From contig OX597842.1 of assembly GCA_951406725.2 (NCBI GenBank), positions 28,334,001 to 28,398,000 of the forward strand: a DNA stretch of 64,000 bases, given 5' to 3'. The notes beneath the pieces were generated by a model that ran no database searches, had not been told where the DNA came from, and saw nothing but the letters and a program-made list of their open reading frames with translations. The position numbers were made by a program, and so were the translations under genes. Positions within the stretch are counted from its first letter, which is position 1; each line of letters begins with the position of its first letter. Origin of the DNA: Octopus vulgaris (lineage: Eukaryota). This document shows, one piece after another, positions 1,683-45,260 of this stretch.

Positions 1683-3095
1683 ATGAATAATTTGACTGAA
1701 CCAAAAACCCCTGATACAAAAGAGAAGCCATATCATTGTGATATCTGTGGTAAATCATTTTCTAATTGTGGTAACTTGACTAAACACAAACGTACACATA
1801 CAGGAGGGAAACCATATCACTGTGATGTCTGTGGTAAATCATTCTCGCAAAATGGTCATTTGACTCATCAAAAACATATTCATCCTGGGGAAAAACCATA
1901 TCAGTGTGATATCTATGGTAAATCATTTCCTGAGTCTGCTCCCTTGAGATCACACAAACGTGGTCATACAGGAGAGAAGCCATTTCAATGTGATATCTGT
2001 GATAAATCGTTCGCTAGCAATAGTCACTTAATTCGTCACAAACGCATTCACACTGGGGAAAAACCATATCACTGTGATATCTGTGGTAAATTATTTCCTG
2101 AGTCTGCTCCCTTGAGATCACACAAACGTGTTCATACAGGAGAGAAGCCATTTCATTGTGATATTTGTGGCAGGTCATTCTCTCAAAGTGGGGACTTGAC
2201 TGTACACAAACGTATTCATACAGGAGAGAAGCCATTTCATTGTGATATCCGTGATAAATCGTTTGCTAGCAATAGTGTATTGACTAATCACAAACACAGT
2301 CATACTGGGGAAAATCCATATCAGTGTGATATCTGCGGTAAATCATTTTCCAGAACTGACACTGTCACTCGTCACAAACATATTCATACTGAGGAAAAAC
2401 CGTATCGGTGTGATATCTGTGGTAAATCATTTTCTCAAGGTGGTGACGTGCTTAAACACAAACGTACTCATACAGGTGAGAAGCCCTATCATTGTACTAT
2501 CTGTGGTAGATCATTTTCTGGAAGTAGTGACTTGATTAAACACAAGCGTATTCATACGGGAGAGAAACCGTATCATTGTAATATCTGTGGTAAATCATTT
2601 GCTGATAGTAGCACTTTAAATTGTCACAAACGTATTCATACGGGAGAGAAGCCATATTTTTGTAATATTTGTTATAAAGCATTCACTGAAAATAGTCAGT
2701 TGACTAAGCACAAGCGTGTTCATATAGGAGAGAAACCGTATCATTGTAATATCTGTGGTAAATCATTTTCTGAAAGTAGCACTTTAACTAGGCATAAACG
2801 TATTCATACGGGAGAGAAGCCATATTTTTGTAATATCTGTTATAAAGCATTCTCTACAAATAGCTATTTGATTAGTCACAAATGTATTAATACTGAAGAA
2901 AACCCATATCAGTGTGATATTTGTGGTAAATCATTTTCTCACAACAAGACTTTAAATAATCACAGACGTATTCATACAGGAGAGAAGTCATATCATTGTT
3001 ATATTTGTGGTAAATCATTCTCCCAAAGTGGGGTCTTGTCTAAACACAAACGTACCCATACAGGGAAGAAACCACATGATTGTGATATCTGGTGA
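1683..3095 (+). CDS. Tandem C2H2 zinc-finger protein (16 finger units, TGEKP linkers), single coding exon as seen
   Basis: 470-aa ORF of 28-aa CxxC-x12-HxxxH units; fingers 2, 3, 7 and 14 have lost a Zn ligand; no effector domain visible; an upstream exon cannot be excluded. Confidence 0.9.
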   Translation: MNNLTEPKTPDTKEKPYHCDICGKSFSNCGNLTKHKRTHTGGKPYHCDVCGKSFSQNGHLTHQKHIHPGEKPYQCDIYGKSFPESAPLRSHKRGHTGEKPFQCDICDKSFASNSHLIRHKRIHTGEKPYHCDICGKLFPESAPLRSHKRVHTGEKPFHCDICGRSFSQSGDLTVHKRIHTGEKPFHCDIRDKSFASNSVLTNHKHSHTGENPYQCDICGKSFSRTDTVTRHKHIHTEEKPYRCDICGKSFSQGGDVLKHKRTHTGEKPYHCTICGRSFSGSSDLIKHKRIHTGEKPYHCNICGKSFADSSTLNCHKRIHTGEKPYFCNICYKAFTENSQLTKHKRVHIGEKPYHCNICGKSFSESSTLTRHKRIHTGEKPYFCNICYKAFSTNSYLISHKCINTEENPYQCDICGKSFSHNKTLNNHRRIHTGEKSYHCYICGKSFSQSGVLSKHKRTHTGKKPHDCDIW

Positions 3096-3217
3096 ATCAT
3101 TCTCTAGCAATAGTAACAAGCATATTCATACTGGGGAAAAAAACCATATCAATGTCATATCTGTGGTAAACCATTCTCTGCAAATGGCCTCTTAAGTACT
3201 CGTGAGTATTCATACAC
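3096..3217 (+). pseudogene. Out-of-frame remnants of fingers 17-18
   Basis: tgtgatatctggtgaatcattc lacks 2 nt relative to tgtgatatctgtggtaaatcattc; followed by catattcatactggggaaaaaaaccatatcaatgtcatatctgtggtaaa. Confidence 0.8.
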
Positions 3218-8804: not shown

Positions 8805-8873
8805 GGTCCCGGGTTAACCACAGTAAATAAGGTACTCAATACATAGCAGAGTAAAATTAATTTATTATATAGA

Positions 8874-8930
8874 AGGAGCTTCTACAGGACTAGAACTGTT
8901 TCATTCAAGAGAAATCTTCAGGAAGCTCCT
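8874..8930 (-). ncRNA. Type I hammerhead ribozyme fold (Penelope-like family 1)
   Basis: Minus strand reads AGGAGCUUC-CUGAAGA-UUUC-UCUU-GAAU-GAAA-CAG-UUCUAGUC-CUG-U-A/GAAGCUCCU: 9-bp stem I, intact core, 4-bp stem III, GUA triplet; 10.1-11.1 is U.U rather than G-C. Confidence 0.75.
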
Positions 8931-8982
8931 GAAGATTTTTGTATTGGTTTGTGTATGTGTATGTGTGTAGATATGTAGATTT

Positions 8983-9030
8983 CTGAAGATTTCTCTTGAA
9001 TGAAACAGTTCTAGTCCTGTAGAAGCTCCT
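8983..9030 (+). ncRNA. Inverted, 5'-truncated second copy of the family-1 hammerhead
   Basis: ctgaagatttctcttgaatgaaacagttctagtcctgtagaagctcct; the 5' arm of stem I is missing. Confidence 0.6.
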
Positions 9031-9038
9031 TCTATATA

Positions 9039-9073
<35 letters not shown>

Positions 9074-14032: not shown

Positions 14033-14083
14033 AGCTTCCTGATGATTTCATTTGAATGAAACAGTACTAGTCCTATAGAAGCT
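14033..14083 (+). ncRNA. Third family-1 hammerhead copy (mutated stem III)
   Basis: AGCUUC-CUGAUGA-UUUC-AUUU-GAAU-GAAA-CAG-UACUAGUC-CUA-U-A/GAAGCU; C.A mismatch in stem III; tataaata ~30 nt upstream. Confidence 0.65.
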
Positions 14084-14119
14084 CCTTCTATAAAATATAA
14101 TATATATATATATATATAT

Positions 14120-31900: not shown

Positions 31901-32034
31901 AAATCATGGGTACTATTTAAGAAGAGTGGTCCCGGTGTGCGCATCCGAGCATCTACGCCAGCTAGTCGTGACAAGTCAATCCTTACTTTGTGTTTTTGTG
32001 TTTTATATATTTTGTTTAAAAAATTTTACTTTGC

Positions 32035-32262
32035 AGGCGGCACGTAAAAAGCACCCACTACACTCACGGAGTGGTTGGCGTTAGGAAGGGCATCCAGCCG
32101 TCGAAACACTGCCAGATCTGACTGGGCCTGACGAAGCCTTCCAGCTTCACAGACCCCAATTGAACCGTCCAACCCATGCTAGCATGGAAAGCGGACGCTA
32201 AATGATGATGATGATGATGATGATATACACATATGTATATATATATATATGTGTGTACATAT

Positions 32263-32300
<38 letters not shown>

Positions 32301-32487
32301 TTAGCGTCCGTTCTCCATGCTAGCATGGGTTGGACGGTTCAACTGGGGTCTGTGAAGCTGGAAGGCTTCATCAGGCCCAGTCAGATCTGGCAGTGTTTCT
32401 ACAGCTGGATGCCCTTCCTAACGCCAACCACTCAGTGAGTGTAGTGGGTGCTTTTTACGTGCCACCCGCACAGGTGCCAGACAGAGC
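32035..32487. mobile_element. Two RTE 3' tails in tail-to-tail inverted orientation
   Basis: + copy 32035-32222 and - copy 32264-32487, separated by ~40 nt. Confidence 0.9.
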
Positions 32488-32566
32488 TATATATATATAT
32501 ATATATTTATATATATCTAAGTATATGAAAGAATGGAGTTGAACGACTGGTTAACAAGTATCCTTT

Positions 32567-32651
32567 ATTCTCGACATATGTTTCGAAGGCTGCAAATTCC
32601 TATTTCCGAAGGAATAAGGAGTACATTTTGCAGATTTCTCATCAGGAAAAT
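32567..32651 (-). ncRNA. Type I hammerhead ribozyme, canonical core, GUC site, palindromic minimal stem III
   Basis: Minus strand AUUUUC-CUGAUGA-GAA-AU-CUGCAAA-loop-UUUGCAG-CC-UUC-GAAA-CAUAUG-U-C/GAGAAU. Confidence 0.85.
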
Positions 32652-32735
32652 CCAGGAACTTATGTCGACATCAAAATGCACAAACAACTTTTAGTTGACT
32701 GCTCTCAAGGAGCCCATGGCAAAAATAAGGGTCTC

Positions 32736-32754
32736 TTTATAAGGAGTGACGTCA
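32736..32754 (-). promoter_or_regulatory. CRE palindrome plus TATA box upstream of the hammerhead
   Basis: TGACGTCA at 32747-32754 and TATAAA (minus strand) at 32736-32741, ~85 nt 5' of the ribozyme. Confidence 0.4.
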
Positions 32755-33390
32755 GAGTGGTTGAATGTAGAAGAATCTGGAAGGATCTAAAGGTTCAAGG
32801 GTTCAAACGAAGTAGGAGGAGGGAGGCATAAGAATATTAAGGTGAGAGGGTGCAGGTCAGAAGAATGGTGGGCTTAATTGATTTCTTTTATGAATGAGTG
32901 CCTGTGTGTGTGACTGAGTATAACTGCCTTAATGTGTGTATGTGTGTGTATGAATGCGTGAATGTGTCTGTGGATGGGCAGATGTCAGAAATACTGACTG
33001 CTGCTAGGTGAGAGGTCTGTGTCTGTGTGTTCGATTATGTTTACTGTAGGTGAATGAAAGTATATAGAGAAAGGGAGGGAGAGTCGGGCGAGTCGGGCGA
33101 AATCTGCAAAATGTACTCCTTATTCCTTCGGAATTAGGAATTTGCAGCCTTCGAAACATATGTCGAGAATAAAGGATACTTGTTAACCAGTCGTTCAACT
33201 CCATTCTTTCATATACTTATATATTTTTAAAATAAACATACAAATTTCCGCACGAAAGCACGTAGTCTATACCCTAGGGACGTAGCTTCAACCGTGTTCT
33301 TTCTGATGCGAATTTCCTACCCGGGTATCGGTTATCTTTCGAATTATCCTTAATAAGATAATTCAATCAACTACTCAAATATTTATATAT

Positions 33391-34644
33391 ATCATCATCA
33401 TCGTTTAACGTCCGTTCTCCATGCTAGCATGGGTTGGACGGTTCGACCGGGGATCTGGGAAGCCAGAAGTCTGCACCAGACTCCGGTCTTATCTGGCAAT
33501 GTTTCTACAGCTGGATGCCCTTCCTAACGCCAACCACTCCGTGAATGTAGTGGGTGCTTTTTACATGCCACCTGCACTGGTGCCAGGCGAAGCTGGCATC
33601 GGCCACGGTCGGATTGGTGCATTTTACGTGCCACCGGCACGGAAGCCAGTCGAGGCGGCACTGGCGTCGGCTATGATTCGGATGGTGCTTTTTACGTGCC
33701 ACCGACACGGAAGCCAGTCGACGCGGCGCTGGCATCGGCCACAATTCGGATAGTGCTTTTTACGTACCTCCAGTCCCAGGGCGCTGGCATCTGCCGGGTG
33801 CCAGTCATAGGATTAGTTCAATTTCGATTCCGATTTCGATTTCACTTGCCCCAACAGGTCTTCGCAAGGAAAGGGGGGTTGGCATGGGTGCCTGTCGTCG
33901 GATGAGGTTCGATATCGACTTCGCTTGCCTCAACAGGTCTTTGGGTCCAAGGGAGGAAAGGCATGCATAAGTGGGCTGGGCACACTTGTCCTGCCTGGTC
34001 TTCTCACGCACAGCATATTTCCAAAGGTCTCGGTCGCTGGTCATTTCCCCAGTGAGACCTAAGGTTCGAAGGTTGTGCTTCACCACCTCGTCCCAGGTTT
34101 TCCTGGGTCTACCTCTTCCACGGGTTCCCTCAACTGCTAGGGATTGGCACTTTTTCACACACCTATCCTCATCCATTCTCGCCACATGACCATACCAGCG
34201 CAATCGTCTCTCTTGCACACCACAACTGATGCTTCTTAGGTCCAACATTTCTCTCAGGGTACTAACGCTCTGTCGAGTATGCACGCTGACATTACACATC
34301 CATCGGAGCATACTGGCTTCATTCCTCACGAGCTTACGCATGTCCTCAGCAGTCACGGCCCATGTTTCACTGCCATGTAGCATGGCTGTTCGTACACATG
34401 CATCATACGGTCTGCCTTTTACTCTGAGCGAGAGGCCTTTTGTCACCAGCAGAGGTAAGAGCTCCCTAAACTTTGCCCAAGCTATTCTTACTCTAGCAGT
34501 TACACTTTCAGCACACCCAACCCCACTACTGACTTGGTCACCTAGGTAACGGAAGCTATCAACTACTTCTAGTTTTTCCCCTGGAAAGTGACGGAAGTTG
34601 TTATCTGCAGATTTTCAGAGATTTTTGCTCCTGAGCATCTGCCA

Positions 34645-43689: not shown

Positions 43690-45260
43690 ACACACACAGC
43701 ACACACGCTCGCGCGCACACACACACACATGTGCACAAAAATGGTTCATACACATGTCTATATACGCACATGCACAAGAAAAAACAGGGCTAGAGGCAAA
43801 ATACAGGATCTTTTCCTTTTGAACGGCACATGGCAACACAATTTCTAGTTAACTAAACACTTTTAAACTCCATATACTGGTAGAATGTGTTTATAAAGTA
43901 TCATTTTTTCTTTGCTTTATTGAGAAAATTCTATAGTTTGTAAGATATTTCCTCTTTAAAATCGAGGATTTCGGCAATTTTAACCAATCGCTGGAGTCTA
44001 TTTGGAGTGAAAACATTCCGTGCTGTATGAATATGTCCCTCCTTTAAGAAACAGATTGGGATTATTTACATTTGCGAAGAAAAAAAGATACCCTTCCCCC
44101 ACACCTAACCCTAACCCTAACCATAATTCTAAACCTAACCCTAAAATAGATTGAAATGCAATAGATTGATACTAGGGTTATAATTATGGGTGACATTTTC
44201 ATTTGACTCCGCCAGAAAAAAATCCCATTTTCCATAGCGGTGTCGTATGAAATTGTCACCCATAATTATAACCCTAGTATCGATCTATAGCATTTCAATC
44301 TATTTTAGATTTAGGGTTAGAGTTAGGGTGAGTTAGGCTTAGGGTTAGGGGTGGGGAAGGGTATCTTTTTTTCTTCGCAAATGTAAATAAACCCAATCTG
44401 TTTCTTAAATGAGGGACATATTCATACAGCACGGAATGTTTTCACCCGAAATGGACTCCAGCGATTGGTTAAAATTGCCGAAATGCTTGAATTTAAAGGG
44501 GAAATATCTTACAACATATAGAATTTTCTCAATAAAGCCAAGAAAATGTGATATTGTGTTGACATGTGCCGTTCAAAAGGAAAAGATCCAAAATACATAT
44601 AAAAAAATAAGTAATAAAAGTAAAACATGTCTATATACGCACGCACACACACACACAAAAAGGTTCATATACACATCTATATACGCACATGTACAAGAAA
44701 AAACGGCTAAAGGCAAAATAGAGGAAAATGGGCAAAAAATGTGTAAAAAAGACAAAGACTAAAACACATCTATATACACACATACTCGCATGCACGTGTG
44801 TCCACGTACAAGCTTTTTATCTCTCTATACTTTTTACTTATATTTCTTTATATTTTTTATATATATATATCTATATATTTTTTACATATTTATAGAGATA
44901 TTGTTTTATAGGTTTATTGCTCATATATTTTTTACACATATATTTTCTCTATTCTACCTTCCACCCTGCATTTTCCCTTTGCGTATATAGAGTGTATATG
45001 GAATCTTTTGTGCGCGCGTGTGGATGTGTGCATGTGTGCGGATACAGGCGTATATAGACGTGTGTGCGTGCATGCGAGCATGTGCGTATATAGGACGTGT
45101 TTTACTCATTGTCTTTTTACATATTTTTTTACACATTTTCCTGTATTTTGCCTTTAGCCGTGTTTTTTCTTGTACATGTGTGTATATAGACGTGTGTATG
45201 AACCGTTTATTGTGCACGCATGTGTGTGTGCGTATATAGACGTGCGGGTATGCGCGTATA
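43690..45260. mobile_element. Older internally repetitive palindromic element hosting the foldback
   Basis: tacaagaaaaaacggctaaaggcaaaata (43775 variant, 44692) inverted at ~45143-45174. Confidence 0.6.
43806..44589. mobile_element. Foldback/MITE-type DNA element, near-fully palindromic, with internal telomere-like repeats and TSD
   Basis: Ends ggatcttttcctt..gaacggcacatg / catgtgccgttc..aaggaaaagatcc; flanked by aaaataca on both sides; (CCCTAA)n at ~44104-44143 and (TTAGGG)n at ~44311-44349. Confidence 0.9.

Follow-up and report, generated by a model that had tools for sequence, protein, structure and literature searches.

A predicted type I hammerhead with a long stem II in a 5′-truncated Hydra-like Penelope element of Octopus vulgaris

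The locus lies in a 64-kb stretch of Octopus vulgaris contig OX597842.1 (the window), where an insertion formed by two head-to-head arms of a Penelope-like element was delimited by a 15-bp target-site duplication found on either side (Table 1). The direct arm runs from 511 nt before the predicted cut site of a hammerhead motif to +55, starting ~120 nt past the point where the ORF ends in full copies, and the inverted arm covers positions -65 to +212 (with the equivalent of C17 at 33164), both arms being identical at 120 of the 121 positions over the stretch compared. As described previously, the inverted arm begins at the base right after CUGAUGA and, since it lacks this motif, it holds no complete ribozyme. 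The same inversion junction was found at a locus 90 kb away (L002), which is therefore a duplicate and not a second event. Moreover, the insertion lies between copies of a SINE-like, high-copy repeat with (CAT)n at its end, and the left-hand copy is absent at the duplicate locus. In summary, the locus is one ordinary truncated copy among hundreds.

Table 1. Features of the insertion and its surroundings (positions in the window).
Feature	Positions	Strand	Basis or remark
Whole insertion, two head-to-head 5′-truncated arms of a Penelope-like element	32518..33378	.	Ends are the short (+55) and long (+212) termini of the family
Direct arm, 3′ non-coding region/pLTR	32518..33092	-	90% identical to L031
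Inverted arm, G10.1 through cut site to long terminus	33099..33378	+	Arm comparison
Inversion junction with 9-nt duplication	33084..33101	+	Sequence inspection
Long 'tail', in one arm only	33220..33378	+	Arm comparison, 3′-end survey
Target-site duplication, left copy, 15 bp, in TA tract	32503..32517	+	15-mer found twice in the window
Target-site duplication, right copy, 15 bp	33379..33393	+	15-mer found twice in the window
Type I hammerhead, stem I extended; cut predicted at 32573/32572 (C17 at 32573)	32561..32657	-	Motif scan, structure alignment
Core CUGAUGA	32645-32639	-	
Stem I, 6 bp	32651-32646 with 32572-32567	-	One U-G wobble
Stem I extension, four pairs beyond an internal loop	32657-32654 with 32564-32561	-	
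54-nt stem II: 12-position basal helix (2x2 mismatch here), asymmetric loop, apical hairpin	32585..32638	-	Two-sided change in 6 of 12 basal pairs (22 copies)
GAAA	32584-32581	-	
Palindromic stem III ACAUAUGU, putative dimer interface	32574..32581	-	Self-complementarity across copies
Leader helix A, 5′ strand, complementary, in full copies, to the region of the start codon	32532..32541 (-); also 33196-33205 (+)		RNAalifold, pairing counts
Leader helix B, 5′ strand	33324..33334	+	Partner just before AUG in tandem copies, not in the window copy
CRE and TATA box, likely pLTR promoter	32737..32754	-	CRE 32747-32754, TATAAA 32742-32737; 5′ ends pile up at ~32733-32704
SINE-like repeat copies	32029-32488; 33394-33590		
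Second hammerhead-like family, inverted pair	8860-9044; 14033-14119		In TA tract
Inverted-repeat element	43888-44564		212-nt arms, 91%
84-nt periodic array	1692-3167		At least 15 copies

On the minus strand, the direct arm presents all the core nucleotides of a type I hammerhead, a self-complementary stem III and a stem II made of 3 bp (including G10.1-C11.1), a 2x2 loop, 7 bp and a 30-nt apical part. The core, the 6-bp stem I, the palindrome, the unusually long stem II and the predicted cleavage position all coincide with those given in the preliminary description of this DNA, where the extension of stem I was not mentioned. Besides this motif, a strict hammerhead scan of both strands of the window returned a single weak candidate of 4 bp. 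Single-sequence folding gives poor evidence for the motif (z = -1.52), with 12 of 200 shuffles folding equally well. Furthermore, the covariance-model search proposed earlier yielded no Rfam hammerhead match on positions 32480-33400 at E<=10, likely due to the long stem II, and the Rfam matches across the window were only microsatellite-driven miRNA matches among those listed (150 of 213). Given the unremarkable single-sequence fold and the lack of an Rfam hammerhead, a comparative test was needed.

A 356-nt query yielded 2,254 candidates in the genome, of which 40 were scored, with identities of 93-100%, while a 21-nt word from the core occurred 359 times and a 28-nt downstream word 489 times. 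The full core pattern was matched in 67 of the 75 sampled arms belonging to the subfamily of the window, and all core bases were kept in 21 of 22 aligned copies chosen to span the sister subfamilies. This conservation, and not folding, makes the case against chance, and it is also the outcome of the test named in the preliminary description. Across the 22 copies, core position 7 was variable (U, A or G) and C11.1 was substituted only by U, whereas position 17 was never G: it was C or A, and U in a single row among 16 others. The hammerhead structure was paired in 86.4% of the cells, compared to 31-48% in slid controls, with two-sided changes in 10 of 34 pairs and a weaker apical helix of stem II (80% paired), and RNAalifold recovered stem II unprompted. 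Since the pair-change counts come from related subfamilies, one change is counted repeatedly in them; two tree-robust measures of covariation, less clear owing to this relatedness, were reached by 28 and 329 of 500 shuffles and are not clearly above them. Stem II spans 53-56 nt across the lineage and, judging from these alignments, is best explained as a selected structural arm rather than as a switch unique to this locus. When the alignments were inspected by eye, the bulge of stem II had no partner recurring consistently for a loop I-loop II contact, and candidate pseudoknot partners of the bulge, upstream or downstream, were discarded for being inconsistent across subfamilies.

In the case of stem III, the variants ACAUAUGU, ACACGUGU and ACAUGUGU were found, with a palindrome centred on UA, CG or the wobble UG, and their self-duplexes had predicted energies of -7.0, -10.3 and -6.0 kcal/mol, respectively, vs. 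+2.4 kcal/mol for the monomer hairpin. Both the computed energies and the retained palindrome fit cleavage as a dimer, as the dimer-type stem III proposed earlier would predict. Overall, the comparison supports that the type I hammerhead, for which cleavage is predicted, is real, conserved and carried by a retroelement family.

Several of the first 30 loci examined run upstream into a GIY-YIG ORF, and at L031 a near-complete, interrupted RT and endonuclease ORF has an inverted arm on one side and the same pLTR on the other. In such ORF-linked copies, the pLTR is ~90% identical to that of the window. A search with the RT gave 107 scored matches with 74-100% identity, many of them in open frames of ~900 aa. 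In particular, the ORFs of sister subfamilies are open over ~890-910 aa, and their tandem units are spaced by 3.6 kb (period of ~3.62 kb); tandem or partial tandem copies with hammerhead pLTRs appeared at L083, L087 and L133, and the ribozyme runs through to the AUG in tandem copies. According to motifs and alignment, one ORF encodes the RT and, C-terminally, a GIY-YIG endonuclease (EN); scanning two pieces of ORF against Pfam produced no significant match. A Naiad identity, initially guessed from the C-terminus, was ruled out by the C-terminal EN. The window itself contains no family ORF. The preliminary description had proposed a second ribozyme-bearing retroelement family without an ORF: the retroelement family holds, but the lack of an ORF does not, as other genomic copies join the exact pLTR to an RT/GIY-YIG ORF, the linkage that the family reconstruction suggested there was meant to look for. 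Tandem retrozyme-like arrays, also suggested there, are not supported by the ORF-linked copies and their variable truncation points.

The Hydra clade is described as having DKT, CxxC and CxH around conserved E and N, a C-terminal EN, a CxCX5C linker, RWK and (TA)n targets (PMC8557442). The family shares with it, and with Hydra-1_Obim as an example, the single ORF with RT and C-terminal GIY-YIG, the DKT, the CxxC and CxH flanking conserved E and N, and a type I hammerhead near the 3′ end, as well as the (TA)n preference, with TA repeats abutting most of 89 3′ ends. It differs in that two family ORFs have RWL in place of RWK (RW being invariant in 10 aligned proteins) and in that the CxCX5C linker is missing from L087 and L078, while it appears in six of eight aligned relatives, with a spacing variant in one more. 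Moreover, the ORF here is of ~895 aa with Asn/Ser-rich inserts in a 3.6-kb unit, whereas Hydra elements are generally <3 kb (PMC8557442). Because the linker is missing, the family was filed as Hydra-like and not as a tested Hydra member, its likeness to Hydra-1_Obim being judged by eye. On sequence grounds, the hammerhead is assigned to the pLTR of a Hydra-like Penelope element, present here as a truncated copy. The ORFs without the linker zinc finger (L087:5864-8548 and L078:2174-4873) are still (TA)n-targeted, which cuts against the proposed link of the linker with microsatellite targeting.

A total of 97 arms, drawn from the first 100 of the 489 listed sites, were used to survey 5′ ends; they had been sampled by a word located 3′ of the cut, and hence blind to 5′ extent. 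Of those, 87 end within 700 nt. A pile-up was found 10-40 nt past the TATA box (-170), with 18 ends at -160 to -131 compared to 5.2 expected (p ~1e-5), which is only suggestive because the bin was chosen after viewing an overlapping sample. It fits RT running off a transcript begun at the CRE/TATA promoter, and suggestively so. The CRE is the sole one in the window, and both motifs, which had been put forward earlier as the ribozyme's own promoter, are indeed present, partly kept in sister subfamilies and missing in some. On the other hand, four ends fell at the core (-75 to -62), where the background rate predicts 4.25; the break of the inverted arm at this point, which the preliminary description had pointed out, is therefore attributed to chance among scattered breakpoints. 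A hint of a hot spot at CUGAUGA in a core-selected sample was gone in the 3′-selected one. The cut site was spanned by 86 of the 97 arms, so the templates were mostly uncut. None of the 97 arms had its 5′ end at -3 to +1, and 11 ends lay at +2 to +15 compared to 6.3 expected (p = 0.06), a pile-up at the cut thus being not significant. Furthermore, assembled contigs of seven presumed RNA runs and one of unknown kind cover the family, and no leader intron was seen in these contigs, which carry no end or strand information.

The 3′ ends fell into defined classes: from a total of 89 in 60 loci, 29 were at +49 to +63, 16 at +68 to +80 and 42 at +207 to +213, with two elsewhere. Long and short ends are ~140-155 nt apart, and a subfamily with ~74% RT identity has the same two ends, 155 nt apart. 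Among two-armed insertions with both outer ends resolved, 26 of 27 paired a long with a short end (two-sided p ~4e-7; counted by eye), leaving out L154, L159, L160, L163, L168 and L208, in which an outer end was unresolved or the layout complex. The one-sided tail is the signature of PLE tails, which has been ascribed to RT starting at two sites; an inverted 5′-truncated arm accompanies it, and the tail exceeds the 30-40 bp described for PLEs. In the Hydra-1_Obim-type loci L274-L285, with short stem II, copies were seen by eye to end at two places ~60 nt apart.

In tandem copies, the AUG lies 255-267 nt from the cut, which delimits a conserved leader of ~260 nt. Two helices, A and B, were found unprompted by RNAalifold on five copies, the 5′ strand of helix A lying ~30-40 nt past the cut and its 3′ strand doubling as coding sequence. 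Over 16 copies, the leader helices were paired at 95.6%, compared to 28-46% when slid; helix A was 99% paired, with six invariant pairs and two varying only to wobbles, while its ninth pair, gapped in the alignment, was U-A for C-G in five copies and mismatched in L130. Helix B showed two-sided change in four of 11 pairs. The tree-robust measures were reached by 475 and 215 of 500 shuffles, and the covariation of the leader stems from few lineage events. The AUG had a pair probability of 0.75-0.98 in all six single-copy folds, and the folding z was strong in two of the six copies (-7.2 and -7.8) and weak in four (-0.9 to -2.0). Moreover, the 3′ ends of the copies are enclosed by the helices and fall within stretches predicted to be unpaired inside the leader domain. 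An exact search for the leader-junction pattern returned 0 sites. The conserved fold likely hides the start codon and may mark where copying begins; the leader might act as a protein-binding and priming platform that also gates translation. By eye, the leader (33315-33352, plus strand) and the published Hydra-1_Obim 5′ region share GCTACC..AGGT followed by GAATTATC, in the same order before the AUG, which are possibly a deeply conserved Hydra leader signal.

Compared to known systems, the stem II of 53-56 nt departs from the Hydra hammerheads in File S2 of PMC8557442, all of them with short stems II of 3-7 bp and loops of <=10 nt; the same file includes two spike-moss elements as precedents for a long stem II, and Naiads have 'half cores' 35-50 nt apart (PMC8557442). 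The short-stem hammerhead of the Hydra-1_Obim type is a separate family in the same genome, with 39 exact sites. As far as the sections consulted of Cervera & de la Pena 2014 (PMC4209133) go, metazoan PLE hammerheads, proposed there to cleave as dimers, are likewise of type I, located in the pLTR and provided with a short palindromic helix III, and they frequently form opposite-strand pairs 100-700 bp apart, as in the pattern found here. The helix II called 'larger than usual' in that text has 7-8 bp, whereas here ~12 bp, an internal loop and an apical hairpin are combined with an extended stem I. The Poseidon element PAc of Anolis, in the parts considered of Frangieh et al. 2024 (PMC11167929), also has two internal sites at which the RT starts, a tail on one side only, AT-rich targets and uncut RNA as the (main) template in vitro; its tail is cited as 30-40 bp and its sites lie inside the ORF, whereas here the ends are ~140-155 nt apart, fall in a leader that is non-coding and border on TA-like bases with which the target could pair. 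Animal non-LTR retrozymes, according to the portion consulted of bioRxiv 10.64898/2026.07.22.740005, share a type I hammerhead related to PLE pLTRs, but are tandem non-coding units, while the family here has an ORF.

We consider it probable that the hammerhead-bearing pLTR of a truncated Hydra-like Penelope copy was inserted here via a cut in the TA tract and priming at two sites on one uncut RNA. This account has as its established parts the family identity, the linked ORF, the target duplication, the two end classes and the scattered inner breaks. The CRE/TATA promoter would start the transcript shortly before the ribozyme, whose cleavage would be slow and would require dimers formed through the palindromic stem III; in tandem copies, this cleavage would release an uncapped ORF RNA, whose 260-nt leader past the cut would fold over the AUG. 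The leader would also present priming sites at ~+57/+74 and +212 in unpaired AT-rich stretches able to pair with the TA target, and the RT/endonuclease would cut the TA tract and use two sites of a single uncut RNA to prime the two DNA strands.

The reading of the preliminary description, namely an independent family that is non-autonomous, resembles retrozymes, has its own promoter and lacks an ORF, is very improbable. The absence of a family ORF from the window and the predominance of short copies (75 of 97 arms with the 5′ end <=240 nt upstream of the cut or in the first 15 nt after it) would agree with it, but longer copies are continuous into the GIY-YIG ORF, tandem copies are continuous from the ribozyme to the AUG, and the variable truncation points define no fixed unit, so this reading is largely refuted. 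Even less credit is given to a long stem II doubling as the SECIS of an ORF that encodes a selenoprotein, in the manner of some Naiad elements: such SECIS-bearing Naiads exist (PMC8557442) and the window copy shows an AUGA...AAA...GA layout, but AAA reads AUA in most of the subfamily and the ~900-aa ORFs are open with no internal UGA, which serves as a normal stop where others use UAG or UAA. This reading was ruled out for the lack of conserved in-frame UGA codons.

A harder case is that of a hammerhead fold and long stem II kept as a protein-binding or translation-initiation scaffold, with weak or dispensable cleavage, which we regard as unlikely. A sister subfamily (G000; L132, L135, L138, L145, L146, L149 and L150) has the core CCGAAGA and open frames of up to 778 aa, and exact matches to its U4C core numbered 480 sites, compared to 397 for U4 in an identical context. 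The U4C change impairs hammerhead cleavage. Its amplification to that number of sites would favour a scaffold, as would the arms spanning the cut (86 of 97) and, in the parts considered of each paper, the anole element core mutants without effect on insertion in vitro (PMC11167929) and the viral 5′ UTR type I hammerheads that assist cap-independent translation (PMC13725137). Elsewhere, however, the variation obeys catalytic rules (position 7 free, position 17 never G, palindrome kept), which makes selection on cleavage the easier explanation. Along with the preferred account of insertion, a wider reading is advanced tentatively, and we hold it to be possible though rather doubtful: the hammerhead may be the 5′ module of a 350-nt control domain of structured RNA, a platform for an RT/endonuclease dimer with a leader locking the AUG, a toggle between translation and template, and two priming sites 155 nt apart. 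Cleavage would then be optional, enough so for a subfamily with the U4C core to exist at hundreds of sites.

The class of element is known; what sets this lineage apart is its long stem II and long tail, along with the structure of its leader and the U4C subfamily. In full-text searches of the literature, neither the ribozyme of this family nor a 54-nt stem II in a Hydra-type element nor a PLE leader pairing over the AUG was found, and the portion consulted of the main text of PMC13282606 makes no mention of hammerheads; Repbase, Dfam, the repeat library of PMC13282606 and the bioRxiv supplements may already contain the family. The function of PLE hammerheads, the recognition of RNA by PLE proteins and the translation of the ORF are given as open questions in the parts considered of PMC8557442 and PMC11167929. 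The lineage offers natural tests within one genome, with many open-ORF copies, a covarying leader pairing with the AUG, sharp 3′ ends and sister subfamilies with U4 vs. C4 cores, and it shows a high-copy hammerhead form that Rfam misses.

Other features were observed in the window and at the sampled loci. The second hammerhead-like family in the window has the core CUGAAGA or CUGAUGA and a 12-nt stem II region, and it is probably the 'family 1' of the preliminary description. Unrelated hammerhead motifs with stem II regions of 16-29 nt appeared near family elements on the minus strand of L079 (6133 and 6698), L088 (1535) and L074 (1813). Moreover, the period of the 84-nt array points to a likely C2H2 zinc-finger exon, and the inverted-repeat element is MITE-like, with short CCCTAA runs inside.
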